The position numbers and the translations under genes are program-made. 64,000 bases of DNA from Kofleriaceae bacterium (lineage in GTDB: Bacteria > Myxococcota_A > Polyangia > Haliangiales > Haliangiaceae), in assembly GCA_037720695.1 (NCBI GenBank), contig JBBJLY010000001.1:55878-119877 (forward strand), written 5' to 3'. Within the stretch, counting starts at the first letter, position 1. Each line of letters starts with the position of its first letter. Shown here piece after piece: positions 25,329 through 57,068 of the stretch. Under the pieces are notes generated by a model that was given only the letters and a program-made list of their open reading frames with translations, was not told the origin of the DNA and made no database searches.

Positions 25329-25967
25329 CTACATAGAGCCCGGCTCCCCGGGAATGTGACGGCCACGCACGACGGTTTGTTGGTCCTGCATCCAGCGGTC
25401 GAGCGTCTCGTCGTTTTGCAGCGCCTCGGGCGGCGCCACCGCGACCAGCTGCGCGCGCAGGGACTTGCGAGCGCGATGCAGGCGGCTGCGGATCGCGACG
25501 GCGGTGGTCTCGAAGATCTCGACCAGCCCCGCGATGTCGACCTCCTCCCAGTAGTGCAGCTCCAGCAACACTTGCTGATCGACCGGCAGGCGATGCAGCG
25601 CGTCGACCAGCTGGCGGTGCTCCTGCGCCCGGCCAAGGCGGGTGCCCGCGGTCGAGACCAGATCGGCGATCGACGACACCGCGAAGTCGAGCTTGTCCTG
25701 CTTGCGCGACTTGGTGCGCAGGTGATGGCACAGCTCGTGGCGCGCGATCGTGAACAGGTACGTACGGAAGCTCGAGTCCTGGCGAAACTGATCCCGTGCG
25801 CGCACGCACGCGAGGAACGTCGACTGGGTCAGCTCCTCGGCCTCGGGCTCGCATTTGGTCTCGAAGAACCGGAACACGGTCGCGAAGTGACGCGCGAACA
25901 GCGCCTGCCCGGCGGCTCGATCGCCCGCTCGCCAGCGCTCGAGCAACGCGAGATCGTCGACTTCCAC
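25329..25967 (-). CDS. ECF-type RNA polymerase sigma-70 factor
   Basis: Region 2 'FRTYLFTIARHEL' and region 4 'LELHYWEEVDIAGLVEIFETTAVAIRSRLHRARKSL'. 212 aa. Confidence 0.85.
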   Translation of the reverse strand: MEVDDLALLERWRAGDRAAGQALFARHFATVFRFFETKCEPEAEELTQSTFLACVRARDQFRQDSSFRTYLFTIARHELCHHLRTKSRKQDKLDFAVSSIADLVSTAGTRLGRAQEHRQLVDALHRLPVDQQVLLELHYWEEVDIAGLVEIFETTAVAIRSRLHRARKSLRAQLVAVAPPEALQNDETLDRWMQDQQTVVRGRHIPGEPGSM

Positions 25968-26002
25968 GCGGGGACTCTACACCAGCGTCCCGGCCACGGC
26001 CC

Positions 26003-38675: not shown

Positions 38676-40114
38676 CTAGCCGCGCGCACGCAACAGCGAC
38701 TTCTGTACCTTGCCCATCGCGTTGCGTGGCAGCTCGTCAACAAACCGGATCTCGCGTGGCCGCTTGTGCGGCGACAGCAAGCCCGCGACGTGATCCTGCA
38801 AGGCCGCGGACTCGACCGGCGCGCGCGTGACGACGAACGCCACGATGTTCTCACCGAGGTCCGCATCGGGGACGCCGATCACGGCCGCGGCCGCGACGTC
38901 GGGATGCTCGAGCAACGCGGCCTCGATCTCACCCGCGCCGACCTTGTACCCGCCGCACTTGAGGATGTCGGTCGAGCGCCGGCCGACGATCCGGATCTGC
39001 CCCGCCTCGCGCACCGCGAGATCTCCGGTGTAGAACCAGCCATCCGCGTCGAGCACCTCGCGTGTCGCTTCGTCGCGATTCAGGTAGCCGGCGAACACGC
39101 GGGCCACGCACGGCGATCTCGCCCATCGTGGTCGGGTCGCCGTCGATCGGCACGCGCGTCGTCGACCAGGCGGAGCTCGACACCATCGAGTGGCGTCCCG
39201 ACATGACCGGGACGGCGATCGCCATCGTGTCGGGTCGAGCAGTTGATCAGCGTCTCGGTCAGCCCGTAGCGCTCGATCGCGCGCTGGCCGGTCAGCTGCT
39301 CGAGCCAGCGATGCTCGCGCACCGAGAGCGGCGCGGAGCCGCTGACGAGCAGCCTCGCGCTGCGCAGTGCGCCCGCGATCGCGGGGGACCGCTCCGCCGC
39401 CTCGCACAGCCGGTGGATCATCGTCGGCACCGCGAACACCACCGCAGGCGTGTGCTCGCCGACGGCGCGGGCCAGCTCCTCGGGCGAGAACCGCGGCACC
39501 CAGCGCAGCGCGCCCCCGCGACGAAGGCTGCCAAACAGTCCCAGGACCAGGCCGTGGACGTGGAACATCGGCAACGCGTGGACGACCGTGTCGTCGCCGG
39601 TCCACGCCCAGGCGCGTGCGAGGGCGTCGAGGTTGCTCGCGACGTTGCGATCGGTGAGCAGCGCGCCCTTCGGCGCACCGGTCGTGCCCGAGGTGTAGAG
39701 CACGAGGGCGGGCACACCGCGCAGGGTCACGGCGTCCAGTGGCGCGGTCGCGTCGGTGCGCACGATCGCGGGCACCGTCTCGAACCTGCGGTCGACCGCG
39801 TCGAGCGCTGCGGCGACGCACAGCCGGGGCGCGGCATCGCCGAGCACGTGCGCGAGCTCGTGCGTCCCGAGCTTTGGATCGAGGGGCACGGACACGTATC
39901 CGCCAGCGGCCTGCGCGACGAGCGCGACCAGGGTCTCGAGCACCGGCTGGGTCCACACCCCGATCCGATCACCCGGCGCGCAGCCATGCGCCGCGAGCGC
40001 CGCGAGATGGTGGGCGCACGCGGCGGCGAGCTCGCGCTGCGTCAGCGTGCGGGCCTGGACCTGGAGCGCCAGTCGATCAGACGGCGCGGAGAGCGCTGGA
40101 AACAGCGGCTCCAT
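38676..40114 (-). pseudogene. AMP-dependent acyl-CoA synthetase/ligase, two frameshifts
   Basis: 'LYTSGTTGAPKGA', 'YGLTET', 'GEIAVRGP', 'GWFYTGD' and 'GGYKVGAGEIE' motifs. Three frames are used (ORFs 39080..40114, 38929..39225, 38676..39956), with junctions at about 39155 and 39095. Confidence 0.8.
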
Positions 40115-40118
40115 CTCC

Positions 40119-41347
40119 TCACCCGTAGCGAACCTGGACGGTCTCGATCAGCGCGCGCAGCGCACGCTTCACGCCGTCGGTGGTCGGCGCCTTGACGATC
40201 GCCCAGCCTTCACCTTCGTAGCCATCCGCGCGGCCCTGCCCCACTCGGGGGCGGTTCGACCAGCGGTCGCCGCCGCCTCGATCGCGTGCTCGATGCCGGA
40301 CACCGCGACGATCCGCGAGCCGCCGCCCTGGCCGCGAAAGAACGCCGAACCGGCGGCGTGCGTCCGCGGCTTCGGCGTGAACTCGTCGAGCGCCATCAGC
40401 CGCGCCCAGTCGGCGAACAGATCGGTCTCGTGTGCGATGCCCATCAGCGGCATGATCTGCACGCCGGGTGGCCGCACGCCGACCTCGTTGACGAGCGCGC
40501 TGCCATCCTCGCGCAGGAACCACTCCATGTGCGTCAGCGCGGTGCCGGCCGCGGTACCAGCCTGGTCGCCGAACAGCGCCGCGAGCGCTGCGGTGTTGAC
40601 CGGATGGAACGCGGTCCAGGTCGGGTCGTCGACCTCGCGCGGCAACAGCACGCTGTACTGGATCCACGGCGTCTCGAGCACCTCGAGCGGCGACGGGAAG
40701 TAGCGCGTGCCCGATCGCCAGACCGGGACGCCGCGGACGGTGACGGTCTCGCACGTGTGCTCGCGGGCGCGCACGAACTCCTCGACCTGCAGCGGCTGGT
40801 CGGGCGTCGGCGTCGGTACGGCTACGAGGTCGGCGGCCGACTCGACCCGCGACGTCCCGCGGCTGCCGAGCCCGGTCTGCGGCTTGACGATCACCGGATA
40901 GCCCACCTCGTCGATGAACGCGGCGATCTGATCACGGGACCGGGCGAGCGTGCTGCGTGCCACCGGGACGTTTGCCCCGCGCAGGACCTCCTTCATCCGA
41001 TCCTTGTCGCGAAAGTTTCGCGCGATCGCGGTGGTCAGGCCCTCGATGCCGAGCGCATCGCGCGCCGCGGCCATGGGCAGCTGGAGCTGCTCGAGCACGC
41101 CGACCAGGCGATCGACGGGGCCAATCGATCCCGTGATCGCGCGTAGCGCAACGATCAGCTGCTCCGCGGACAGGCAGTCGTCGACCCGGTAGTGCCCGGC
41201 GACGCGGGCGCGCAACCCGGGTGGGATCGCGTGCGAGTGATCGCTGCTGATCAGGCTCAACGTGATGCCATCGAGCCGCGCGAACGCGCGGACGTAGCGG
41301 TTGGTGGTCTCGAGGAAGCGGGGCGCGACGAAGACGACGTGGTTCAT
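40119..41347 (-). pseudogene. ATP-grasp ligase (paralogue B), one frameshift near the C-terminus
   Basis: 'FRDKDRMKE', 'GYPVIVKPQTGLGSRG' and 'MEWFLREDGSALVNEVGVRPPG'. The tail 'GYEGEGWAIVKAPTTDGVKRALRALIETVQVRYG*' lies in the frame of ORF 40119..40754 and parallels the tail of paralogue A. Junction at about 40255-40275. Confidence 0.7.
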
Positions 41348-41349
41348 GG

Positions 41350-42566
41350 TCAGGATGCGTGGAGCTGGATGGTGGTCGCGGCGTCGAAGGCCATCTGCTG
41401 CGCGGCCTCCCAGTCAGGGTGTCGGATCACGATGTAACCGTCGGACAGCAGGGTCGCCTTCCAGTCCCGCCGCGGCGTGCCTGGACGTAGCAGCGTATCC
41501 TCGACGATGAACGGGCGAAAGCGATTGTAGAACTCGGTGAGGCCGACCATCTGGGTGATCCGGCCCTTGCCCTGCGCCCGCGTGAACACGATGGCCACGT
41601 TGTACTTGCGCTCGGTCGAGCCTGCGAACTGCTTGTGGGCCACGGCGCGCGCCCACTCGCGGAACAGGTCGACGTCGTTGGTGTAGTTCATCAGATCGAC
41701 GATCCCTGCGCCGCCCGGGCGACACGCGACCTCGCCGAACACGACCTCGCCGGCCGGCGTGCGGAACCACTCCATGTGGGTCATGCCGTCACCCATGCCG
41801 AGTGCGCGCAGCACGCCACGCCCGAGCTCGACCCCGGCCTTGATGTGGGCTGGTCGAGGTCACGCACCGAGAGCATGATCGGTGAGACCCACTCGTTCGA
41901 CCGCATCTCGAGCGCGCTCGGGATGTACTTCGTCACGCTCTCGAGGGCGGGCACGCCGTCGAGCGCGACCGTGTCGTACGTGTACTCGTCGCCCGCGATG
42001 AACTCCTCGCAGATCGCCTCGGTGATGTGGCGCATGTGCGGCAACACGCGCTCCATGTCGGTCGCCGATTCCACCTTGTAGGTGTCCGCGCTGCCGGCCC
42101 CACTGATCGGCTTGATGATCGCCGGATAGCCGGTGGCCTCGATCGCCTCCCACACATCCTTGATCGAGCGCACGCGCTGGGCCCGTGGCACGCGGAGCCC
42201 CGCCGCGGCGACCCGCTCCTTCATCAGCTGCTTGTCGCGGAACCCGCGCACGGTGTCGACCGACATCCCGGGGATGCCGAACCGCTCGCGCAACCGCGCG
42301 GCGACCATCACCAGCGGCTCCCAGTTCGCGAGCACGTTGTCGATCGAGCGACCGCGCAGCCAGTGCTCGACCCGTGTCATCACGTCGTCCTCGTCAAGCA
42401 GCGACGGGACCTCGAGGTACGCCGACAGGTAGCGCTGGAGCTCCGGATCCGGGCTGCCATCGCCAACCCCGAGCACCTCGACACCGACCTCGGCCAGGCC
42501 GCGCGTGAACTGCCGCATCTCCGGCGGGTACCTCGGCGACAGGAACACGACTCGCATCTCGCGCAC
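41350..42566 (-). pseudogene. ATP-grasp ligase (paralogue A), one frameshift
   Basis: 'FRDKQLMKE', 'GYPAIIKPISGAGSAD' and 'MEWFRTPAGEVVFGEVACRPGG'. ORFs 41781..42566 and 41350..41814 join at about 41847 ('..DLDQP|HIKAGVELG..'), where 'ccc' versus the expected 'cccc' fits a 1-nt deletion. Confidence 0.7.
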
Positions 42567-42584: not shown

Positions 42585-44785
42585 TCAGCGCGCGTCGATG
42601 GCCATCCCGAGGTGAAGTCTCAGCTCGGCGAGGATCTCCTTGATCTCGACGATCGACTTTCTGGAGCACCGCATCTTCAACAGCTCGGCTTCGCTGCGTT
42701 GCACGAGCTCGCGGATCGTGGTGATCCCAGCCTTCTCGAGCGCGTTCGCAGCGCGCACGGACAGCTCGAGATCGTCGACGTGCCGGGCGAGGTGCTCGTT
42801 CTCCGCCGGGCGCACGACAGGTGGCCGGGCCCCGAGCGCGGGTCGTGGTGCCGGCCCGTCGTAGCGATAGCCGCCGATGATCACCGCCGCGGGCGGCCAC
42901 GTGCACGGATCGACCTCGCCCGCGCGCGCCGCTTCGACGAGCCGACCGATTCGATCTGCGGACTCCGCGACGGCGCCGACCCACGACGTCGTGACATCCG
43001 GCGCGGCGCCGCGCGGAGCGAGCTGCTTCGCCTCGTACTGGCCGGCATCGCTGATCGGGAGGTGCAGCGACACGCGGTCGCCCGCGACCACGCCGAGCTG
43101 CGATGCGGTGTCGCGATCGAGCTCGACGACTGAATCATCGCGCTGCTCGAACGCGACGCCGACCATCGCCGGGCCGCGCGCGCCGACGAGCAGGACCCGC
43201 TCGTGCATCACCATGCGGACCAGCTCGCGCCGGACCGTCGGATTGCCGGCGATCAGCTGCTTCGCGTTTTTGATCGTCGTCGTGTAGCCGAGCGACTCGC
43301 AGAGACCGAACACGAGCGGGCTCGCCAGCCGCGCGAGCAGCTCGACCGGTGCCCGGCATGCCGTCCCGATCACGACCCGCGCGGCCCCCGAATAGTCGGC
43401 GCGCAACGGCCGCGGCGCGAGCGCCTCGCACAACCTGCCGAGCATCAGCTCGACCACGGCATCGACCGCGGCCTGATCCTGCGCCTCGAGCACCCGCGTG
43501 TAGGCCTGGTTCAGCGCATCCTGCGGATCGGGTCGCAGCCCGGCGGGCAGCACCGGCACGATCGCCCACGTCACGCCACCGAACCGGCGCGGTGCGATCG
43601 GCATCGCGAGCCGGATGTGCGCGAACCGCTCGCCACGAACGCGCGCCTGTACCACCTCGACGCCGCACACCTCGCACACCGTCCCGCGGTCCTTCATCCG
43701 GGTGTACTTGCCGCACTCGCAGCGGTAGTCCACGCGCGGCCCAAACAGCTGCGGCGAGAACAGGTCGTTACCGAGCTCGCCGCGCGACCACGCGGGACTG
43801 GGGTCGCGAAGGTCCGCGAGCGCGAGGCAGAGCGCGTGATCGTCCTGCACCAGATCGATCCCGGCCGCGCGTGCGAGGATCGCCAGTCGCGCGACGCGCT
43901 CGAACCCGCGCACCTCGGGCGGCCGGGCCGACGAGACCAGCGCGGTCAGGCCCGGCATCGCGTAGTCGTGCGCGGCGACGACCGGTCGCGCGCGCGGCGG
44001 TGGGTGCACGCGGACCAGCCGTCGGCGATCGGCTCGTGCTTGATCTGTGATTCGACACAGGTCCCCGCGAGTATCGAATCGCCACCCGTCTTGTAGGCCG
44101 CGTGCTCGCTGACGAGCGCGAGCCCGCCAGCTGCGACCAGCCAGGACAGCTGGTCGAGCCGCAGCGGCTCGCCATCGACCGGCTCGTGGGTAACCGGATC
44201 GTACGCGCCCACGCCGCGCGCGTGGAGCTCCTGCGACGCGGTCGGGAAGCCTCGCGTGATCAGACACGCCTGCCCTGCGCGGCTCGCGACGTGAAGCCGC
44301 GGCACAGGATCGCCATCGTCGACGATCTCGTCGACCAGCCCGAGTCGCGCGTCATCCGCGAACAGCGAGTCGCCGACCTCGAGCGGCCCCGACCAGCGCA
44401 CGGTCACGCGGATGCGCTCGCCGATCCCCGCCGGCAGCCCGGTGGTGATGGACTCGACCGCTTCGATCACACCTTCTGGTGCCGACGAGAAGTGAAGCAC
44501 GCCGTGCAGGTGGCGGACCAGCTCTCCGCCCCGCACCACCGTGCGGCCGAGCTCGGGGAGCTGGGACCTCGCCGTCTCGCCGAAGATCGCGAGCAACAGC
44601 TTCTCCTCCGGCGACAGCGCACGCTCCAGGTCCTGGTCGAGCACGTCGAGCTCGTGGATCGAGCGGTGCGTCGCGACGAGCTGATCGGCGAGCGCGCGGT
44701 TGGGCCGTAGCGTGCCCGTCGCGATCGCGTGCAGCCTTGCCTCGAGGGCGACCGCCTCGACCTGTTCGTCGACCCGGATCGGCAT
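42585..44785 (-). CDS. RNAP beta(C-terminal)-like / beta-prime(N-terminal)-like pseudo-polymerase fused to an alpha-subunit C-terminal domain; one frameshift at about 44000-44012
   Basis: '[16 protein letters not shown]' (RpoB flap tip). '[19 protein letters not shown]..' (RpoB C-terminus). '[51 protein letters not shown]' (RpoC zinc ribbon). 'ADYSG', 'TTIKNAK', and a degenerate active site '[14 protein letters not shown]'. '[47 protein letters not shown]' (alpha-CTD). See findings. Confidence 0.6.
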
Positions 44786-44831
44786 GCGTCACGGTATCGC
44801 CGATCGCCGACGGCTTGCGGTAGGGTGCCGC

Positions 44832-45152
44832 ATGAAGATCGACACCACGATCCTGCTCCCCGTCGCCGCGGTCATCGCGTCGTTGCTGCTGCTGGTCGCG
44901 GGCAGGAAGCGGCTGCTCGAGGCGATCGCCCTCGTGGCCAGTGGAGCGTGGCTGCTGCATGCACTTGGCATGTACACGTGGCCGTTCAAGCATCAGTACG
45001 CGACCCACAACATGGTGATCGGCGGCGTGCTCGTACTCGTCGGGATCGCGGTGTATCTCAAGACCACGAACAAGCGCGAGGTGACCTCGGCGACCGTGGT
45101 CGCGATCCTCGGCGGCATGCTGGTGGTGAACGCGCTCGCGACGCTTGGCTGA
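44832..45152 (+). CDS. small integral membrane protein (106 aa, three TM)
   Basis: ATG 44832 gives 'MKIDTTILLPVAAVIASLLLLVAG' (aa 45 of track ORF 44700..45152). Divergent from the RNAP-like gene, 46 nt away. Confidence 0.5.
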   Translation: MKIDTTILLPVAAVIASLLLLVAGRKRLLEAIALVASGAWLLHALGMYTWPFKHQYATHNMVIGGVLVLVGIAVYLKTTNKREVTSATVVAILGGMLVVNALATLG

Positions 45153-45193: not shown

Positions 45194-46450
45194 ATGTCGA
45201 GGGGACCGAGAGTCAACCGTCCGGAATCCATCAACCTGCATCACGCACCGCGCGTGAGACTGCAATCGCTCGTGTGCATCGCGCTGGCCACGACTGTCGG
45301 TGCGTGTAACGCACCGTCCGACCCCGATCTCACGGCGGACATCCCCGCGGACGAGCTACCGGCGCGCTGGACCGACGGCACGGATGTCGACGACGATCTC
45401 TCGGGCGATCTGCGTCCCGAGGCGCGCGATCTGATCGACACGCGCGCGTCGGGCGCCGAGCAAGCCGCGCTCGCGCTCGCGTGGACGCCACCGGCATCGA
45501 TCCGGGTGTGGCGCCGCGCGCTCGATGGCTCGACCGCGTCGTGCTCGGGTCGGGTCGACGTGATCCCGTTCGAGACCTACGTCAAGGGCGTGCTGCCGCA
45601 CGAGTGGATCCGCAGCTGGCACGCTGCCTCGCTGCGCGCGGGGGCGATCGCGATCCGGACCTACGCCGCCAACTGGATCATGAACGGCGGCAAGTACACG
45701 TGCGCCGATCTCGACGACACCACGGCCTCGCAGGTCTACCGCGACGAGTTCTTCGCGGTCACCAATGCCGCGGTCGACGCGACCGCGAACACGTACGCGA
45801 TCAAGAACGGTGTCCCCGTGTTCGCCGAGTACTCGGCCGAGAACGGTCACCCGACCGCGACCGGGATCTCCGATCCGCCGTGTGCGGGCAAGGCCCGGTT
45901 CGGCCACGGCCGCGGGACCTGCCAGTGGGGCAGCCAGCGCTGGGCTACCCAAAGCAAGAGTCACACCTGGATCATCGAGCACTACTATCCAGGCGCGTCC
46001 GTCGTCACGGTCGGCTCCGGTGGTGGCGAGTCGATCATCGTCGACAACAACAACGCAAACAACAACCCCGCCGCCGCGAAGGTGGAGTACGTCGGGACGT
46101 GGACCGCCTCCACGGGATCGCCGGGCTATCACGCCACCGACTACCGCTGGGCGGCGACCGAGGCCAGCTCCGAGCCAGCGACGTTCTCGTTCTTCCTGAC
46201 CGCCGCACGCAGCCGCACGATCGATGCGTGGTGGGTTGCTGGGACGAACCGGTCGGCCGCCGCCACCTTCATCATCCAGGACGCGCGCGGGGTCGAGCTC
46301 GGCCGGGTCGCCGCCAACCAGCAGTCCTCCGGCGGGCGCTGGAACGCGATCGGGACGTTCTCGTTCAGCGCGGGCTGGAACCGCGTCGTGTTGTCGCGCT
46401 GGCAGGCGCCCGGTAGCGTCGTGGTCGCCGACGCCGTCCGTGTGCGCTGA
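45194..46450 (+). CDS. SpoIID/LytB-domain lipoprotein with a golvesin-C-terminal-like carbohydrate-binding domain
   Basis: 'FETYVKGVLPHEW', 'LRAGAIAIRTYA' and 'TASQVY' (SpoIID-like). The C-terminal 'GTWTASTGSPGYHATDYRWA...WWVAGTNRSAAATF...NQQSSGGRWNAIGTFSF' is golvesin-like. Lipobox 'TTVGAC'. An alternative GTG start lies at 45254. Confidence 0.7.
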   Translation: MSRGPRVNRPESINLHHAPRVRLQSLVCIALATTVGACNAPSDPDLTADIPADELPARWTDGTDVDDDLSGDLRPEARDLIDTRASGAEQAALALAWTPPASIRVWRRALDGSTASCSGRVDVIPFETYVKGVLPHEWIRSWHAASLRAGAIAIRTYAANWIMNGGKYTCADLDDTTASQVYRDEFFAVTNAAVDATANTYAIKNGVPVFAEYSAENGHPTATGISDPPCAGKARFGHGRGTCQWGSQRWATQSKSHTWIIEHYYPGASVVTVGSGGGESIIVDNNNANNNPAAAKVEYVGTWTASTGSPGYHATDYRWAATEASSEPATFSFFLTAARSRTIDAWWVAGTNRSAAATFIIQDARGVELGRVAANQQSSGGRWNAIGTFSFSAGWNRVVLSRWQAPGSVVVADAVRVR

Positions 46451-46524
46451 GCCACAGCGCAGGCCGTGGATGACGACCGCCGGGATGCGCTCCCAGCGGT
46501 CCACTGCGGTATCGTGGTGCGCCG

Positions 46525-46947
46525 ATGACGGCGAAGCACACCACCGGCGCGCTCGAAGGAGCGCGGGTCCTCGTCGTCGACGATGACGTCGACGTGCTGC
46601 GACTGATCCAGATCCTGCTCCAGAACGCGAAGGCGATCGTCGAGACCGCTCCGTCGATGACCGCCGCGCTCGAGCTGCTCGAGTCGTTCACCCCCGACGT
46701 GATCGTCAGCGACATCGAGATGCCTGGCCACGACGGGTACGAGCTCATCACCTCGGTCCGCGAGCGCTCGGCCGAGCGAGGCGGCAAGCTGCCCGCGATC
46801 GCCCTGTCCGCCCACGTCAGCGAGCAGGACCGGCTGAAGGCGATCGCCGCCGGCTTCAACGTCCACGTCAAGAAGCCGATGCGCGCCAGCCACCTGATCG
46901 AGGCGATCCGGCGGGTGCTCGAGCACGAGCCGCCGCCCACCGCCTGA
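46525..46947 (+). CDS. single-domain response regulator (CheY-like receiver)
   Basis: 'VLVVDDDVDVL', 'DVIVSDIEMPGHDG' and 'HVKKP'. 140 aa. Confidence 0.85.
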   Translation: MTAKHTTGALEGARVLVVDDDVDVLRLIQILLQNAKAIVETAPSMTAALELLESFTPDVIVSDIEMPGHDGYELITSVRERSAERGGKLPAIALSAHVSEQDRLKAIAAGFNVHVKKPMRASHLIEAIRRVLEHEPPPTA

Positions 46948-47002
46948 CGCTCGTCCAGCCCATTGGGTGGTAGGGTCCCGACCGCGTGTCCGCGAGTCGC
47001 CC

Positions 47003-48499
47003 ATGAATGACCAGCTCGATCTCCTGATCGCCGATGGCGTCATCGACGAGGTCCTGGGACGGCTCAAGAGCGGTAAGGAAGCGAACATCTCGCTGGTCCG
47101 GCGCGGCGACGACGTGATCGCCGCGAAGGTCTACAAGGATCGCGCGACCCGCAGCTTCAAGAACAACGCCGGCTACAAGGAAGGCCGCAAGGTCCGCAAC
47201 AGCCGCACCCAGCGCGCGATGGACGGCGGCGGCCAGTTCGGCCGCGACGCTGCCGAGCAGGAGTGGAAGTCCGCCGAGGCCGATGCGATGTACAAGCTGG
47301 TCGGCAGCGGCGTGCGGATCCCCGAGCCGCTGATGTTCTACGAGGGAGTCCTGCTGATGGAGCTCGTGCGCGATGCCGAGGGCCGCCCCGCGCCGCGCCT
47401 GATCGACATCGCGATCGAGCAGGCCGACGCGATCGGCCTCTACGCCGACCTGTTCGCGCAGATCGTTTCGCTGCTCTGCTGCGACCTCATCCACGGCGAT
47501 CTGTCCCCGTACAACATCCTCGCCGCCGCCGACGGGCCGACCATCATCGACTTCCCGCAAGTGGTGTCCGCGGTGCATAGCTCGCGCGCCGAGTTCTACT
47601 TCCTGCGCGACTTCGACAATGTCGTCTCGTTCGTGTCGCGGTTCGATCCCGCGCTCGCGGTGCATCGCCACGATGGGCGCGCCGTGTGGCGCGCCTACGT
47701 CAGCCGCGAGCTGACGCCGAGCTTCGTTCCGCCACCTCCCCCGCCCCCGCGGCCCACGCGCGGCCCGGATCGCCGGGGCCCTCGCGATCGTCGTTCGCCG
47801 CAACGCGGACCGCAGCCGCCGCAGCAGGGCGCGCCACAGCGTGATGGTCAGCCCCGCGGACCGCAACCGCCGCGCGACTTCCCGCCACGCGATGCCCAGC
47901 GCGGGCCGCAACCGCAACGCGGACCGCAACCGCAGCGCGACTTCCAGCCACGCGATGGCCAGCGCGGACCGCAAGGCGCGCCACAACCGCAGCGCGGGCC
48001 GCAACCGCAGCGCGACTTCCAGCCACGTGATGGCCAGCGCGGACCGCAAGGCGCGCCGCAACCGCAACGCGACTTCCAGCCACGCGATGGCCAGCCGCAC
48101 GGGCCGCAGCAGCCGCGCGGCCGCAACCACCACGCGGGCAGCGGCCGCGCGGGCCGCAACCACCACGCGGGCCGCAGCGCCGCGCGGGCCGCAACCACCA
48201 CGAGATCTCCAGCAGCGCGACAGGCAGACGGGTGGCCCGCAGCCGCAACCGCCCCGCGATCAGCCACCGCCACGCGACTTCCAGCAGCGCGGTCCGCAGC
48301 CGCAACGCGATGGCCAGTCGCGTGGTCCCGCAGTCGCCATCGCGCGGACCCCGATCACCCGCTCCGCGCGGAACCGCAGCCGCGGCCGGGTTGGACCGAG
48401 GCTCGACCCGCGAGCAGCCCACCTCCGCCGCTCGTGGCGGCGCCGGCGGCCGAAGCGACACTGGTAACCCGGGCGCTAACAGGACGACGAGATCACTAA
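47003..48499 (+). CDS. RIO-type atypical protein kinase with a Pro/Gln/Arg/Gly-rich repetitive tail (3' end uncertain)
   Basis: 'GKEANISLV', 'AAKVYK', 'LLMELV' and 'LIHGDLSPYNIL..IIDFPQ' form a RIO1-like core. From about aa 256 the tail is low complexity and appears to continue in other frames after about 48120. Confidence 0.7.
   Translation: MNDQLDLLIADGVIDEVLGRLKSGKEANISLVRRGDDVIAAKVYKDRATRSFKNNAGYKEGRKVRNSRTQRAMDGGGQFGRDAAEQEWKSAEADAMYKLVGSGVRIPEPLMFYEGVLLMELVRDAEGRPAPRLIDIAIEQADAIGLYADLFAQIVSLLCCDLIHGDLSPYNILAAADGPTIIDFPQVVSAVHSSRAEFYFLRDFDNVVSFVSRFDPALAVHRHDGRAVWRAYVSRELTPSFVPPPPPPPRPTRGPDRRGPRDRRSPQRGPQPPQQGAPQRDGQPRGPQPPRDFPPRDAQRGPQPQRGPQPQRDFQPRDGQRGPQGAPQPQRGPQPQRDFQPRDGQRGPQGAPQPQRDFQPRDGQPHGPQQPRGRNHHAGSGRAGRNHHAGRSAARAATTTRSPAARQADGWPAAATAPRSATATRLPAARSAAATRWPVAWSRSRHRADPDHPLRAEPQPRPGWTEARPASSPPPPLVAAPAAEATLVTRALTGRRDH
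47858..48121 (+). repeat. 75-nt coding tandem repeat (about 3.5 copies) encoding GPQPQRDFQPRDGQRGPQGAPQPQR
   Basis: Near-identical units at 47921-47995 and 47996-48070, with degenerate or partial copies on both sides. The repeat lies within the RIO-kinase tail. Confidence 0.8.
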
Positions 48500-49605: not shown

Positions 49606-50598
49606 TCATGTCACGTGTCCCCGTCTGTAGAGCGCAGCGACCGCACGCGCGGTGTCGCGCAACCGGGTCCGCAACGCCGCAGGTTCGAGCACCTCGACCT
49701 CGGGACCGAGCGCCAGCAGCTGGGAGGTCGCGTGATCGATCGATTCGATCGGGATGGTCACCTCCAGCCGATCGCCGCCGGGCGCACGGGCGATCGCGCC
49801 TTCGATCGCTTCCTCGATCGCTTCCTCGATCGCGGCGCTGGTACCGCGGAGCAGTTGGCGCCCGCGGGGCGTCAGCCGGATCCGGGCGCGTCCGCGATCG
49901 AGGTCGCGCTCGAAGCGCTCGATCGACGCGACCCAGTACGCGTCGAGGTCGAAGGTTGCGGGCCGCGCGAACGAGCCCGCGACTTCGAGGCGGCGGATGT
50001 TCGAGACCTTGTAGGTCCGGGGCGTCGCTTTGCCGCGGGCGCGCGCGACCAGGTACCACTCGCCCGCCTTGATCACGAGTCCGAGCGGCTCGAGCTCGCG
50101 CTCGACGACCGCGGTCCAGCTCTCGTAGCGGATGGTGATCCGCTGATCGCCCCAGACCGCGTCGGCGAGCGAGCGCAGGTGCTGCACGGGACCCGTCCGG
50201 CGGTACCAGCCCGCGAGATCGACGTGGAACCGCGAGCTCACCCGATGCGCCTCGGCCTGCCACTCTCGAGGAAGTGCGGCCAGCAGCTTGAGCTGCGCCG
50301 AGGCCATCGTGTCGCCGAGCCCGAGCTGGACGGCGGGCCCGGGCAACCCGGAGACGAACAGCGACTGCGCCTCGTTCGGCGTGAGGCCGGTCAGCGTCGT
50401 GCGCCAGCCGTCGAGCAGCTCGAAGCCGCCCGCCGCGCCGCGCTCGACCACGACCGGGATCCCGGCGGCACTCAGCTCGTCGATGTCGCGGTAGACCGTC
50501 CGGGTCGAGACCTCGAGATGGGCGGCGAGGGCGCGCGCGCTGACCCGACCGCGGGTCTGCAGCAGCATCATGATCGAGACCAGCCGGCTGGCACGCAT
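49606..50598 (-). CDS. HTH-WYL domain transcriptional regulator (YafY-like)
   Basis: ATG 50598 gives 'MRASRLVSIMMLLQTRGRVSARALAAHLEVSTRTVYRDIDELSAAGIPV'. WYL motif 'GEWYLVA'. 330 aa. The rest of track ORF 49606..51255 is a shadow reading. Confidence 0.85.
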   Translation of the reverse strand: MRASRLVSIMMLLQTRGRVSARALAAHLEVSTRTVYRDIDELSAAGIPVVVERGAAGGFELLDGWRTTLTGLTPNEAQSLFVSGLPGPAVQLGLGDTMASAQLKLLAALPREWQAEAHRVSSRFHVDLAGWYRRTGPVQHLRSLADAVWGDQRITIRYESWTAVVERELEPLGLVIKAGEWYLVARARGKATPRTYKVSNIRRLEVAGSFARPATFDLDAYWVASIERFERDLDRGRARIRLTPRGRQLLRGTSAAIEEAIEEAIEGAIARAPGGDRLEVTIPIESIDHATSQLLALGPEVEVLEPAALRTRLRDTARAVAALYRRGHVT

Positions 50599-50664
50599 CG
50601 AAATCGGATCCTGCGCGATCATATATGACAGTCGGTGGCAAGTATGGGGGCGCAGTGTCGGCCG

Positions 50665-51258
50665 ATGACGAATCGACTCTCGAACCTGTCCCGTTCCCTG
50701 CTCGCGCTGGTCGCGGGCTGCAGCGCGTCGGCCGCACGGCCGTCGATGCTGGCTGATCCGCCCGGCTACACGCTGCAGCGAACCGGGGACGTCCACGACT
50801 TCGACTTTCTCGCGGGTGCCTGGACCGTGCAGAACCGCCGCCTGCTCGGGCGTGGGGTCGCCAGCACGGAGTGGGAGGAATTCCCCGCCACGACGTGCGC
50901 CACCGTGTATCTCGGAGGCGTCGCCAACATCGACGAGCTGGTGTTCCCGACCAAGGGCTGGGCCGGCGTGTCGTTTCACACGTTCGATCGCGCGAAGCGG
51001 CAGTGGTCGATCTACTGGGTCAACAGCCGGAGCGGCACGATGTTCCCGCCGGTGCTCGGCGGGTTCGACGGTAAGATCGGCGAGTTCTACGGCGTGGACG
51101 AGGACGGCGGGCGCCCGGTGAAGGTGCGCTTCCGCTGGACCAAGGACGGTCCGGATCACGCGCTGTGGGAGCAGGCGTTCTCGTTCGACGGCAAGACCTG
51201 GGAGGTCAACTGGAAGAACGAGCTGACGCGCGCCGCACCGGGCAGCTGCGCGCACTGA
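50665..51258 (+). CDS. lipoprotein, DUF1579-like (hypothetical)
   Basis: ATG 50665 gives 'MTNRLSNLSRSLLALVAGCSAS'. The family assignment from 'FDRAKRQWSIYWVNSRSG' is weak. Confidence 0.5.
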   Translation: MTNRLSNLSRSLLALVAGCSASAARPSMLADPPGYTLQRTGDVHDFDFLAGAWTVQNRRLLGRGVASTEWEEFPATTCATVYLGGVANIDELVFPTKGWAGVSFHTFDRAKRQWSIYWVNSRSGTMFPPVLGGFDGKIGEFYGVDEDGGRPVKVRFRWTKDGPDHALWEQAFSFDGKTWEVNWKNELTRAAPGSCAH

Positions 51259-53185: not shown

Positions 53186-54509
53186 TCAGCGAAAGCTGGT
53201 CGGGTCGAGCTGGTAGCGCTTGAGCCACCGGTAGATCTGCTTCGCGTCCTTGCCATAGAACGCAGCGAGTCGGCTGACGTTGCCGTGCAGCCCGGTGAGC
53301 TGCGTGACGAGCTCGTCGCGACTCGGCATGCCGGGGAGCTGACCCTCGCCGCTCGCGGGTACGGCCTCGTCGGGCGAGGCGATCGGAAGCTCGAGGACTG
53401 CATCGAGATCCGAGCGCCGGACCTCCGTGCGGGCACCGAGCTGGAGTGCGATCAACTGCATCGCCGACTGCAGCTCGCGAATATTGCGTGGCCACGGATG
53501 GGTGACGAGTCGCTCGGCGGCCTGGCCGGAGAGCTGGCGCACGGGACCGGCCGCGGCAAGGAAGCGCTCCGCGAGCATCACGATGTCTCCGCGCCGCGTG
53601 CGCAGCGGCGGCAGCTGAATGACGGCACCGGCGAGCCGCGCGTGAGGTCGCTGCGAAACCGGCCCTCTGCCGTGCGCGCCGCGAGATCGAGGTTGGTCGC
53701 CGCGATCACCCGCGCATCCGTGTGCACGCTGCGGGTGGCGCCGACCGGAATGATCTCGTGGGCGTCGAGTGCGCGCAGCAGCTTGGCCTGATGCGCGAGC
53801 CCGAGCTCGCCGATCTCGTCGAGGAACAGCGTCCCGCCCTGGGCTTCGAGGAACAGGCCCGGGCTGTCACTGGTCGCGCCGGTGAATGCGCCCTTCCGGT
53901 GCCCGAACAGCGTCGCCTCGAACAGATCGTCCGCGAGCGCGGCGCAGTTGACCGCCACGAACGGGCCCCGCCGGCCGCTCTGCCGGTGGACGTACTGTGC
54001 GAGCACGTCCTTGCCGGTCCCCGTCTCGCCGAGCAGCAGCACCGGGATCGCGGATGGGGCCACGCGTGCCGCGAGCGCAGTCGCGGCGACAAATGCCGGC
54101 GCGTTGCCGACCAGCAGCGGATCTCCGGTCTCGCCGGCCGGGCCACCATCTGCGAGCTCGAGCAGCGTGTCACCGACGCGCACGAGGTCCCCGCGCTGCA
54201 GCATGCGCGTCGCGATCCGGTGGCCGTTGACGAACGTGCCATTGCGACTGGCATGATCGTGGATCTCGACGATGACTCCCGCGCGCGTGATGGTCGCGTG
54301 CAGGCGCGACAGCTTTGCGTCATCGATCGCGAGCTCGACGCCGGGGCCGAGCGCCCTGCCGATGCCGAGCCTCGTCGCGAGCTCGACCCGGCGCGACCGC
54401 AGCCCCGCGACCGGCGTGTGGAGGACCAGCAGCGACCACGACTCGGTGGCGCCTGGATCCGGTCCGGAGCCTGCGCTCTGGAGCGTCGTGGCGGAGGGCC
54501 GTCCGGCAA
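53186..54509 (-). pseudogene. FHA-domain sigma-54-dependent transcriptional activator (EBP), two frameshifts
   Basis: FHA domain '[32 protein letters not shown]'. AAA+ domain '[12 protein letters not shown]', 'GAFTGA' and '[11 protein letters not shown]'. Fis HTH 'NVSRLAAFYGKDAKQIYRWLKRY'. Junctions at about 53641-53644 ('DL|YARLAG') and about 54493-54497, next to the TTG start. Confidence 0.8.
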
Positions 54510-54551
54510 GGCCGCACTCTACCAGCGCGGTTCCTGCCCTACACTCCCCAC

Positions 54552-57068
54552 GTGATCGAGGGCGACACGGCGCCGGACAGCGAGCCGGAGGTTCCCGCGA
54601 CCGGGCGCCTCGCGGACGAGCTGCTGCCTGAGACGCTGGTCGACCGCTACCAGATCGAGCACCGGCTCGGCGCCGGCGGGATGGGCATCGTGTACGCGGC
54701 GCGCGATATCCATCTCGGCCGCGCGGTCGCGGTCAAGCTCGTCGGTTCGCGCGTCGACCTCGAGTCCGGCCAGGGCCAGCTCGTGCGCGAGGCGCAGGCG
54801 ATGGCGAAGCTGCGCCACCCGAACCTCGCCACCGTCTACGATCTCCGGGTCACGGCCGACCGGCTGTTCATCGTGATGGAGCTGGTCGACGGCGGCACGC
54901 TCGCCGACTGGGCTGGTGCCGTCGCGCGACCATGGCGCGAGCTGACCGCCATGTATCTGCAGGCTGGGAGAGGCCTCGCGGCGGCGCATGCCGCCAGTTC
55001 GTTCATCGCGACTTCAAGCCGGAGAACGTGCTGGTCGGCAAGGACGGCATCGCGCGGGTCAGCGACTTCGGGGTCGCGGGCATCCTCGGCGCCCAAGGCC
55101 TCGTCGGGACGCCCGGCTACATCGCGCCGGAGGTGCGACGGCACGAGCCCGTCGACGGCCGCGCGGATCAGTACAGCTTCTGCATCGCGCTGAGCGCTGC
55201 GCTATGCGGCAAGCGTCCAGCCGAGTCCGTCGCGCGCCATGTTCGCCCGCGCTGGCTGATGAAGATCATCACGCGCGGGCTGGCGGAGGATCCGCGCGAT
55301 CGCTGGCCGTCGATGGACGTGCTGATCGGAGCGATCGAGCGCAGGCTCGAGCACCGCCGGCGCGCGTGGTTGCTTGCGGCCCTCGCTGTGGTGGTCGTCG
55401 GCGTGACGATCGCGGTGATCGCCGGCACGCGGCGACCGCCGCCGTCGGTGCGGAGCTGGTCGCCGGTCGTGATCGGGCGCGAGCGTCGCGACTCGCCGCT
55501 CGGCATGATCGTGTCGCGAGATGGCTCGACCGTGGCCGGCATCGCCGCGACCGAGGCGTGGACCGAGCCGCGCAGCGTGGTGGATCGCGACGGCGGATCC
55601 GTTCCCGGTCCGCGCCGAGCTCGACGCGTGCCGGCTGTCGCGCACCGGTGCGCGGCTGGTCTGCGGGTTCGGCGGCGAGCTCGAGATCTGGGCGATCGAG
55701 CTCGCCACCCTGCGCGCGTCGCGCCTCGTCACGGGAGCCAGGCTGTTCGACGTCGGACCCGACGACAGCATCCTGTTCGGCTCGGTCGACCTCGCGCGGC
55801 TCCACCGCCGCACGGCCTCGGGCGTCACCGCATCGATCGCGACGGTGCGTGGCCCCGACTTGCTCACCGGCGCCGTGTGGTCGCCCGATGGCACGCGCAT
55901 CGCGTACAAGGTGCGGACCGCGGATGGCGCGCGGATCGAGATCTTGACGCTGGCGACCCACGACACCCGGGTGGTGTCGCGTCGGATCTGCAAAGAGCTC
56001 GAGTGGCTGACCGACACGTCGCTCGTGTGTGCCCCGCGCAGCTTTCGCAAGCCGCTCGTGATCGAGCTTCGCCTCGGTGCGGGAGAGGCGACGGAGCTCG
56101 TCCGCTACGACGGCCCCGAGTACCAGCAGGTCAGCGCGCTGTCCGCATCGGCCGCGGGCGTCTTGCTGTCGACCTCGCCGAACGATCAACACCTCGCGAT
56201 CGTGTCGTCGAGCGGTGAGGTGCAACGGATCGCGTCGGGCGGCGTCACCGATCTGCCGGCCGCAGGCTTCACCGCTTCGGGACAGCTGATCTTCGGGGCC
56301 AGCGAGCAAGGGCATCTCCGGATCAAGTCGCTCGAGGTCGACGGGACCGTCGCGACCGTGCGCACCGGCCCGACCGCGGAGGTCCCGTTCGTCGTCGCCG
56401 GCGAGACGGTGGTGTTCGGACGCTTCCCGGGCGGCGAAGCCACGATCCCGTTCTTCGAGACCCCGGTCGGTAGGCGCTATCCCGACGGCGAGCTGTTCCG
56501 GCTGATGCTCGCATCGGGCAAGGTCGAGCCACTCGGTGCGACGCGCGGATTCAGCTCGCTGTCGTGCGCGACTGCTGTCGGACCTTGCCTGCTCGCGGAG
56601 CGCAGCGGCGCGTACGTGATCGCGCGCGACTGGGATCTCGCGACCGGCGCGCGGGGGCCCGAGCGCGCCCGCTGGCTGGTGACCAGCTTCGCGTCCACCG
56701 TCGCGCTGTCGCCCGATGGCCGCACGCTCGCCCACGTCCAGCGCCTGATGGAGAACCGCGAGCTGTCGCTGCTCGAGCTCGACACCGGGGTCCGTCGCCG
56801 GATCGAGCTGCCGGGGACGGCGCTCGACTTCCCGCGCTGGCTGCCCGACGCGACCCTGGTCGCTGTGCGCACGCGCGGTGGCGAGCGTGGCCTGGTCCGC
56901 GTGCGGGAAGCCGGACCGCCGGAGCTCGTGCTCGCGGTGCCACCGGCTGGCGAATCGCTGACCCTCGCGGGCGAATTCCAGATCGCACCTGACGGTCGCG
57001 CCGCGGTGCTGCTGACCGATTCACTCCAGACCCATGGCTGGGTCGCCCGTGATCAGTTCCAGAATTGA
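54552..57068 (+). pseudogene. Ser/Thr protein kinase with a TM segment and a C-terminal beta-propeller (PD40/WD40-like), two frameshifts
   Basis: '[12 protein letters not shown]', 'VAVK', 'HRDFKPENVL', 'DFG' and 'GTPGYIAPE'. TM segment 'LLAALAVVVVGVTIAVIAG'. Propeller repeats 'WSPDGTRIAY' and 'LSPDGRTLAH'. Junctions at about 54993-54998 and about 55570-55585. Confidence 0.8.

Follow-up and report, generated by a model that had tools for sequence, protein, structure and literature searches.

Polymerases that hold both double-psi barrels in one polypeptide, and that are far smaller than the cellular core, have been described in YonO of prophage SPbeta and in QDE-1 (PMC5467207, PMC9508822). The natural fusions of RpoB with RpoC in Helicobacter and Wolbachia (models PRK14844 and PRK09603) also place beta and beta' on one chain, and these proteins are full-length, essential and catalytic. 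Here we analyzed a gene from a 64,000-nucleotide stretch of the assembly GCA_037720695.1 of a Kofleriaceae bacterium (contig JBBJLY010000001.1, positions 55,878 to 119,877; hereafter the window, with all coordinates given as window positions). An earlier sequence-only reading of this stretch had proposed that the gene codes for a chimera of beta, beta' and the C-terminal domain of the alpha subunit (alpha-CTD). Overall, our results indicate that the gene product is a non-catalytic paralogue of bacterial RNA polymerase that is under selection. Specifically, a Pro/Ala-rich linker connects the last third of beta to the first third of beta', after which come a family-specific segment and the alpha-CTD.

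Parts of three polymerase subunits on one chain

The gene is spread over two overlapping open reading frames (ORFs) on the minus strand, ORF1 at 43946..44785 with 279 amino acids (aa) and ORF2 at 42585..44267 with 560 aa, both as read previously. A three-frame translation joins them over one frame change into a protein of 734 aa, where the earlier reading had counted about 733 aa. The change falls between PIADGWSA, which ends at 44009, and AMPGLTALV, which starts at 43958; its finest placement is thus 43958-44012, a range that includes the 44000-44012 given before. The NCBI product from the same assembly (P0001) has only 474 aa, from a GTG start at 44009. A sequence search with the 734-aa query returned eight single-ORF homologues (719-790 aa, 33-50% identity, 89-100% coverage), two of which are named as coming from Kofleriaceae metagenome-assembled genomes (MAGs). 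Since these eight uninterrupted homologues match across the query, the joined frame is the natural one, and the architecture is conserved in homologues. The parts of the gene are as follows.

42585..44785, minus strand: whole gene of the beta/beta'/alpha-CTD chimera, 734 aa after one frame correction, with ATG at 44785 and stop at 42585-42587; homologues P0002-P0009 align end to end
44009..44785, minus strand: beta-like part of about 259 aa, with flap (sandwich-barrel hybrid), crippled double-psi barrel and conserved beta C-terminal segment; matched to solved beta chains by profile A2
44570..44617, minus strand: flap-tip helix; profile against beta chains, and the motif EEKLLRAIFG in relatives
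44333..44380, minus strand: degenerate counterpart of beta GDKMAGRHGNKG, with the Lys and the RHGNKG residues gone; profile against beta chains and family alignment
44078..44227, minus strand: counterpart of the beta segment ending in TVKSDD, here ending in AAYKTGGD; profile against beta chains, stretch 3, E=1.3e-09
43958..44012, minus strand: Pro/Ala-rich, GC-rich linker with the single frame change from ORF1 to ORF2; homologues have a low-complexity linker of 35-90 aa here
43851..43919, minus strand: beta C-terminal helix-strand, then the first beta' strand; relatives read PESIEILARELAALAIEVRL, and the AlphaFold2 model has a helix at residues 297-308 and strands at 311-316 and 319-324
43593..43748, minus strand: beta' zinc-binding domain with four Cys at 43665-43721; TIGR02386 match, Cys invariant in alignments A1 and A5
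43386..43553, minus strand: trimmed clamp core, VLPAGLRP to ADYSG; alignment with the longer family members (long forms) and canonical beta'
43053..43157, minus strand: remnant of the beta' double-psi barrel, with the catalytic loop NADFDGD changed to LGVVAGD; family alignments
42855..42914, minus strand: family-specific conserved segment (W..VDPCxWPxAAxxxGGY); family alignments
42603..42779, minus strand: alpha-CTD, the C-terminal 60 aa or so; PF03118 and rpoA equivalog matches

Searched as a single sequence, residues 64-122 of ORF2, which form the zinc-ribbon region, match the rpoC equivalog model TIGR02386 with an expectation value (E) of 1.1e-23. Note that the total TIGR02386 score is 83 bits against an equivalog cut-off of 963 bits, and that the rpoC totals stay so far under the cut-off because only a fragment matches. 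The C-terminal end matches the rpoA equivalog PRK05182 (E=2.8e-22) and Pfam RNA_pol_A_CTD (PF03118, E=4.3e-18, 65.2 bits against a gathering cut-off of 23.8 bits). For the beta part, single-sequence matches are weak (E=0.001 for PRK00405 and E=0.17 for Rpb2_6). A profile of the N-terminal 260 aa (A2) matches solved beta chains at E=1.5e-19, with an alignment that spans the flap tip (SPEEKLLrAIFGe), the GDK..RHGNKG region and HARSxGPY...SDD..GR..YEaivkg. Relatives score between 5e-16 and 2e-23 on Pfam Rpb2_6, and a profile of the whole family matches solved beta' chains at E=5e-55. There are thus significant profile matches to all three subunits, which upholds the proposed single chain built from the C-terminal part of beta, the N-terminal part of beta' and an alpha-CTD. 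An AlphaFold2 model (mean predicted local distance difference test score 76, predicted template modelling score 0.61), when searched with Foldseek, likewise retrieved E. coli beta' chains first. A Foldseek search of a viral library gave only the large subunits of multisubunit polymerases, with template modelling scores of at most 0.26, and kinship to phage single-chain polymerases was rejected on this ground. No Pfam or NCBIfam model that covers the protein as a family was found. A precomputed Pfam label, PF26169, is attached to P0001, P0003 and P0027; it could not be reproduced or identified.

The coordinates that the sequence-only reading had assigned to individual parts were largely accurate. 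Those of the flap tip (44570-44617) and of the four-Cys ribbon (43665-43721) are exact, the alpha-CTD lies inside the 42588-42800 given for it, and the segment that starts with PEVRGFERV is indeed the beta C-terminal helix-strand. A minor error concerns the degenerate active-site strand, which had been placed at 43077-43091 and actually extends over 43053-43097. The barrel remnant around this strand gives weak matches to Pfam Molydop_binding, a family with the double-psi barrel fold, in five of nine members. Between the barrel and the alpha-CTD lies a stretch of about 70 aa that is specific to the family and was not remarked on in the sequence-only reading. When read by eye from the alignment of homologues with the E. 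coli sequence, the alpha-CTD keeps counterparts of the DNA-contact residues R265, N268, K298 and S299 and of the '261' acidic residues D258, D259 and E261. The position of G296 is a Ser in the window copy and a Gly in most homologues.

Loss of catalysis in a family under selection

The beta' catalytic loop, NADFDGD in the canonical subunit, reads LGVVAGD in the window copy, and across the family it takes the form LG..(G/S)GD..x.H.P with at most one Asp. All 75 family representatives and 33 additional non-canonical relatives are devoid of both DxDGD and DxDxD; the canonical beta' chains and beta-beta' fusions in the same match lists all keep DFDGD. The corresponding beta motif reads VGD.L....G...V throughout the family, with neither the Lys nor RHGNKG. 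The degeneracy described from the window copy, namely loss of the beta' Asp triad and of the beta GDK..RHGNKG residues, is therefore found in every relative examined. Whole elements are missing as well. There is no match to Pfam Rpb1_2 to Rpb1_5, and the beta'-like part stops at about beta' residue 500, so that the window protein has no bridge helix, trigger loop, jaw or C-terminal clamp. Similarly, there is no match to Rpb2_1 to Rpb2_5, and the protein begins within the flap region, without the N-terminal two thirds of beta that hold the lobes, protrusion, fork and rifampicin pocket. This agrees with the bridge helix, trigger loop and beta lobes having been reported absent.

Both the window protein and the family as a whole are, on these motifs, predicted to be catalytically dead, and we infer that the chimera is unable to make RNA. 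It has to be considered that the chimera could be a minimal active two-barrel RNA polymerase with unconventional catalytic residues, given that single-chain two-barrel polymerases exist (YonO, PMC5467207; QDE-1, PMC9508822) and that both barrels appear to be kept. We regard this as extremely improbable since no member has DxDxD in the barrel region, the beta Lys and Arg residues are gone, and the bridge helix and trigger loop are missing because the chain ends near beta' residue 500.

The family is large. A HMMER scan with the family profile over 1.84 billion cluster representatives (50% clustering) gave 459 matches below 1e-30. Among the best 150 representatives, 75 have the same build of beta C-terminal part, zinc ribbon and beta' barrel in proteins of 528-1245 aa. 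A 57-sequence profile, used in a second search, brought in another 33 non-canonical members, likewise without the catalytic Asp triad. The alpha-CTD is present in 36 of the 75 representatives, and the others stop just past the family-specific segment. As judged from the source names of the matched sequences, members come from Kofleriaceae, from cultured Nannocystis genomes, among them a contig of 13.2 Mb, from cultured Enhygromyxa salina and from MAGs labelled 'Myxococcales' or 'Deltaproteobacteria', with one further source name that begins 'Polyan'. This distribution amounts to the Polyangia of Myxococcota. A contig profile search with alignment A4 had one Kofleriaceae MAG among the matches listed. 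The family records are named only 'hypothetical protein', 'DNA-directed RNA polymerase subunit' or 'alpha C-terminal domain-containing protein'.

Two further groups of proteins were seen in these searches. In P0187, P0202 and P0203 (799-1152 aa) the C-terminal part of beta is joined to the N-terminal part of beta', but NADFDGD is still present; these may be read-throughs of the cyanobacterial or plastid-type rpoB-rpoC1 genes, or merged gene calls, and not relatives of the family. In addition, many metagenomic proteins (P0058, P0078, P0125, P0143, P0153 and others) carry tandem alpha-CTD arrays, with 11 detectable copies in P0048 (1031 aa) and three or four copies at the end of other proteins of 1400-1800 aa.

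The chimera derives from a duplicated myxobacterial rpoB-rpoC pair. An origin from canonical polymerase genes is indicated because the long forms retain a near-canonical lid and clamp helices and because the closest canonical sequences are Myxococcota beta'. The family is also maintained. For one close orthologue pair, P0004 and P0006 (88% identical), the ratio of nonsynonymous to synonymous substitution rates (dN/dS) is 0.20 overall, with 0.25 in the beta-like part, 0.22 in the beta'-like part, 0.16 in the linker and 0.05 in the alpha-CTD tail. This shows purifying selection in the family, as exhibited by this pair. Given this ratio and the dozens of intact, divergent members, neutral decay of the lineage is excluded, in line with the sequence-only reading, which had argued against random decay.

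The frameshift in the window copy has to be seen against this background. At least four other genes of the window are split by single frame changes, as judged from split Pfam domains or tblastn. A Ser/Thr kinase gene (54315-56218) changes frame within its Pkinase domain at about 54.99 kb, with Pfam positions 1-116 before the split and 117-199 after it. A gene for an AMP-binding enzyme (38676-40114) is split at about 39.1 kb, its AMP-binding domain lying in 39080-40114 and its AMP-binding_C domain in the frame of 38676-39956. Two ATP-grasp genes, A (41359-42557) and B (40119-41347), switch frame at about 41.84 kb and 40.26 kb, respectively, in tblastn with their orthologues from locus L003. A scan for frameshifts by GC content at third codon positions (GC3) was too noisy to count events, so only cases confirmed by a split Pfam domain or by tblastn were used; the scan pointed to additional candidates near 2.8, 7.4, 17.7, 37.85, 48.18 and 55.58 kb. 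Since other genes are split while long ORFs elsewhere in the window are unbroken, such as that of a 1268-aa kinase, the error rate of the assembly is moderate but clearly not restricted to the chimera gene. The frameshift of the window copy is therefore read as probably an error in what appears to be an indel-prone assembly.

A pseudogene, in which the window copy or even its entire lineage would be the functionless, decaying remains of a duplicated rpoBC operon, could account for the frameshift, for a linker that is the shortest of its group and lacks a motif of the homologues (see below), and for the loss of all catalytic residues; the three adjacent genes that are also frameshifted can be counted in its favor. 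We consider this explanation improbable. At least 75 representatives at 50% clustering have intact ORFs of 600-1250 aa, the close orthologues have a dN/dS of 0.20, and the splitting of unrelated window genes points to assembly error. Moreover, the window copy has no in-frame stops, and the GC3 of ORF1 is 0.88, comparable to that of adjacent genes, in agreement with the GC3-rich codon usage noted earlier. With an intact family, this dN/dS and assembly errors elsewhere, a lineage-wide pseudogene is excluded and only a recent breakage of the window copy survives.

Retained surfaces and a possible binding role

Conservation is uneven along the chain. The elements that are near-canonical in the window subfamily are the flap-tip helix, the zinc-binding domain, the beta C-terminal helix-strand and TTIK. 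The flap-tip motif EEKLLRAIFG is exact in 26 of the 33 non-canonical top relatives and has one mismatch in five more, and the beta-like part outside the flap tip is far more diverged. Across the family, the zinc-binding domain is more constant than any other element, the flap tip included; its four Cys do not vary in alignments A1 and A5, and its basic residues (RMKHRG, KVRRER) are retained widely. In contrast, an alignment with canonical beta' shows that the window subfamily lacks the lid, almost all of the clamp coiled-coil, the rudder and beta' residues of about 40-57 and 100-235. Its clamp core is about 60 aa long versus 160-190 aa in the long-form relatives. These long forms (P0037, P0040, P0046, P0047, P0057, P0079 and P0085) keep four near-canonical elements, namely KKPETINYRTFKPERDGLF, the lid LVPLDGGRFATSD, the clamp helices DLNDLYRRxINRNNRLxRL...RNE..LQ.A.D.L..NG and part of the rudder. 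All four have been lost in the window subfamily, and the long and short members make a graded series. Thus the sequence-only reading was right that the flap-tip, zinc-binding and alpha-CTD surfaces are kept, as all three are near-canonical in sequence, but it was wrong in regards to the surface for sigma region 2. That surface is absent in the window subfamily because the lid, clamp helices and rudder are deleted; these parts are kept only in the long forms.

The linker of the homologues contains a further element. Within this disordered region there is a conserved short aromatic motif, (D/N)IFxFFExP, for example at about residues 305-315 of P0002, which agrees with the initial residues of canonical Myxococcota beta' (MKDIFNFFEKPKDP). 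The type I relatives show a plain read-through, from the beta end through the linker to beta' Met1. In the window subfamily the motif precedes the beta C-terminal helix, P0039 has two copies of it, and the window copy reads ALVSSARPP at this position with no such motif in any of the three frames. The motif was for this reason rejected as proof that beta is fused to beta' Met1, which is true of the type I relatives only. By its shifting placement and its duplication, (D/N)IFxFFExP behaves like an independent short linear motif.

In a real polymerase, two factors dock in the midst of the flap tip, zinc-binding domain and alpha-CTD, namely sigma region 4 at the -35 element and the N-terminal domain of NusA at the RNA exit channel. 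The uneven conservation along the chain points to these three elements as binding surfaces, and a binding role is favored because a protein-docking helix has been selectively retained after catalysis was lost. The reading that we favor, tentatively and with a little less than even confidence, is that the chimera is a non-catalytic mimic of the mouth of the RNA exit channel that captures or positions a polymerase partner. It would act by presenting the flap-tip helix together with the zinc-binding domain, and would titrate, store or position its partner, most likely a sigma factor through region 4, or else a factor of the NusA type. Holding the chimera on DNA or on an activator would fall to the alpha-CTD, in which the DNA-contact residues are retained. 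The polymerase-surface decoy or scaffold put forward in the sequence-only reading is a hypothesis.

The same surfaces could instead serve a nucleic-acid binder. The flap, the zinc-binding domain and the two dead barrels would form a groove for RNA or DNA that resembles the exit channel or the cleft, the alpha-CTD would add DNA contacts, and no polymerase partner would be needed for a direct role as repressor, RNA chaperone or nucleoid-type protein. The zinc-binding domain contacts nascent RNA and spacer DNA in a real polymerase, its basic residues are widely kept, it is more constant than the flap tip across the family, and the DNA-contact residues of the alpha-CTD are also retained. We nevertheless hold this to be unlikely, although it ranks first among the alternatives, since the lid, rudder, beta lobes and bridge helix, all of which line the nucleic-acid path, are absent in the window subfamily and since the exact conservation of the hydrophobic face of the flap tip is better explained by a protein partner.

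A bolder form of the idea is that of a pseudo-polymerase, a dead mini-core that still loads sigma and sits on promoters as a non-transcribing look-alike of holoenzyme, either occluding or bookmarking them or buffering the pool of free sigma where there are dozens of extracytoplasmic function (ECF) sigma factors. Here the long forms would use the clamp helices plus the flap tip, and the short forms would use the flap tip, zinc-binding domain and alpha-CTD around sigma region 4. We also take this form to be unlikely, and rank it behind a nucleic-acid binder and ahead of a pseudogene. An accessory subunit or assembly factor that docks on the core polymerase, and perhaps replaces or competes with part of beta/beta' or an alpha-CTD and thereby alters the enzyme, would fit the fact that alpha-CTD, flap and clamp pieces normally lie within the core enzyme and that the family is chromosomal and vertically conserved in Polyangia. 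However, the natural partners of the kept pieces (the beta C-terminus with the beta' N-terminus) are already satisfied in the same chain, and the alpha N-terminal domain and the regions of beta and beta' that bind alpha and omega are absent. This role is consequently improbable, and is placed below that of a pseudogene.

Several observations weigh against the exit-channel mimic that we favor. About half of the more distant representatives have no flap-tip motif that could be recognised, so the flap tip may not be the common denominator of the family. The clamp helices are the main contact between sigma and the core enzyme and the contact of region 4 with the flap is weaker; with the clamp helices gone, sigma binding would depend on this weaker contact. 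The AlphaFold2 model has low confidence for the flap tip and for some of the zinc-binding domain. An alpha-CTD need not mean polymerase mimicry, because this module is widely reused outside polymerase in these bacteria, with up to about 11 tandem copies in one protein. Across nine related loci (L001-L009) there are no conserved neighbours and no linkage to sigma, anti-sigma or nusA genes. Finally, the window copy itself, being frameshifted, with the shortest linker of its group and no DIFxFFE motif, could be defective.

Gene neighbourhood and relation to known systems

The chimera gene stands alone in varied neighbourhoods. When 20 candidate ORFs of the window were scanned with Pfam, the only ECF sigma factor among them was found at 25329-25976, which is 17 kb off. 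The 'neighbouring ECF sigma factors' of the sequence-only reading are thus not neighbours among the scanned ORFs, and, with no linkage at the nine loci either, an ECF sigma linkage was rejected. Downstream of the chimera gene, on the same strand and after an 18-nt gap, lie the two paralogous ATP-grasp genes (40119-42557, minus strand). An orthologous ATP-grasp pair flanks the chimera gene in L003 (7538-9998), with one gene upstream at a 2-nt gap and one divergent; GCS2 and AstE/AspA-type genes are close by in that locus. This might indicate a peptide-ligase system that is linked to the window subfamily, or the two loci might simply be of shared ancestry. A gene for an M14 carboxypeptidase follows the gene of the homologue P0008 after a 9-nt gap (L001, 12170-13672), and a 73%-identical M14 peptidase orthologue lies 8.5 kb from P0006 (L004, 10945-11688). 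Both the ATP-grasp and the M14 links are too sparse for a mechanism. On the other side of the chimera gene the window contains the following features.

45194-46450, plus strand: gene for a SpoIID plus Golvesin_C protein
46474-46947, plus strand: gene for a stand-alone response regulator
46967-48499, plus strand: gene for a RIO-type kinase
49606-51255, minus strand: gene for a WYL/WCX/helix-turn-helix regulator
53578-54204, minus strand: sigma-54 activator AAA+ fragment

A 150-aa ORF at 44700-45152 (plus strand) has a GC3 of 0.88, hydrophobic stretches and no Pfam match, and its 5' end overlaps the start of the chimera gene on the opposite strand; it may be a gene for a small membrane protein or a shadow ORF.

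These surroundings bear on the possibility that the dead polymerase surface is a phage decoy or sensor, which soaks up phage anti-polymerase proteins or triggers defence. The flap tip, beta' N-terminus and zinc-binding domain are frequent targets of phage inhibitors, and T4 gp33, Xp10 p7 and P23-45 gp39 bind such sites. Flap tip and zinc-binding domain are both retained here, homologues also have the beta' N-terminal motif MKDIFNFFE, and member architectures vary widely, with or without the alpha-CTD or clamp helices. However, the neighbourhoods consist of ordinary housekeeping and metabolic genes and not of defence islands, there is no fused effector domain, and a search with the PADLOC-DB 2.0 defence models gave as its sole match an alpha-CTD-like stretch of PglW (E of about 4e-05). 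Membership in a defence system was rejected on this PADLOC result, and a decoy or sensor is highly improbable, although not to the degree of an active enzyme.

What can be said with respect to meaning is that a conserved chromosomal family keeps a subset of polymerase surfaces, consisting of the flap tip, the zinc-binding domain, sometimes the clamp helices and often the alpha-CTD. The series of long and short forms constitutes a natural deletion experiment on which polymerase surfaces fold and serve alone. If sigma or NusA-type partners are bound, the chimera would regulate an enzyme by imitating it, and this would partly account for how Polyangia handle very large sigma-factor repertoires. 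The pseudo-polymerase, if true, would mean a regulatory layer made of the polymerase's own parts. Members in cultured Nannocystis and Enhygromyxa make these ideas directly testable. In any case, a conserved family of dead polymerase fragments with an appended alpha-CTD would surprise a specialist in transcription.

In regards to novelty, the sequence-only reading knew of no described family with this architecture. No description of the chimera family was found in the literature searched, including a 2010 survey of non-canonical two-barrel polymerases, and as coverage of subscription journals was incomplete this is not proof. To this extent the statement stands; the sequences themselves, though, are public and numerous under generic names. 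The chimera is a derivative of a well-known enzyme, of which fusions and single-chain relatives are known, while a conserved family of dead fragments with an alpha-CTD is undescribed as far as found.

The closest known system is canonical RpoB/RpoC, especially that of Myxococcota, with which the chimera shares the flap-tip motif, a zinc-binding domain that looks very close by eye, TTIK and the order of the barrels. The VLPPDLRP of canonical beta' is also kept in the family (VLPAGLRP in the window copy). Canonical RpoB and RpoC together have about 2,750 aa versus about 730 aa in the chimera, which is without the beta lobes, protrusion and fork, the part of beta' past about residue 500, the lid, clamp helices and rudder, and the catalytic residues. 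The natural RpoBC fusions likewise have beta joined to beta', and their models match the chimera at E=1.6e-19; whereas those fusions are complete and catalytic, the chimera has arisen by deletion, its active-site motifs are dead and it has gained an alpha-CTD. YonO, QDE-1 and the virion polymerases of crAss-like phages and P23-45 resemble the chimera in being a single chain with both barrels. However, these polymerases are very far from beta/beta' in sequence and keep DxDGD, while the chimera is a recent, close derivative of beta/beta' without it. Compared to alpha-CTD proteins (PF03118), the last 60 aa of the chimera are a bona fide alpha-CTD that is attached to beta/beta' fragments and not to the alpha N-terminal dimerisation domain. 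Finally, the anti-sigma factors Rsd and AsiA would be similar solely in the proposed mode of action, the occupation of sigma region 4. They have no relation to the chimera in sequence or fold, and in the chimera the mimic would be the polymerase surface itself.

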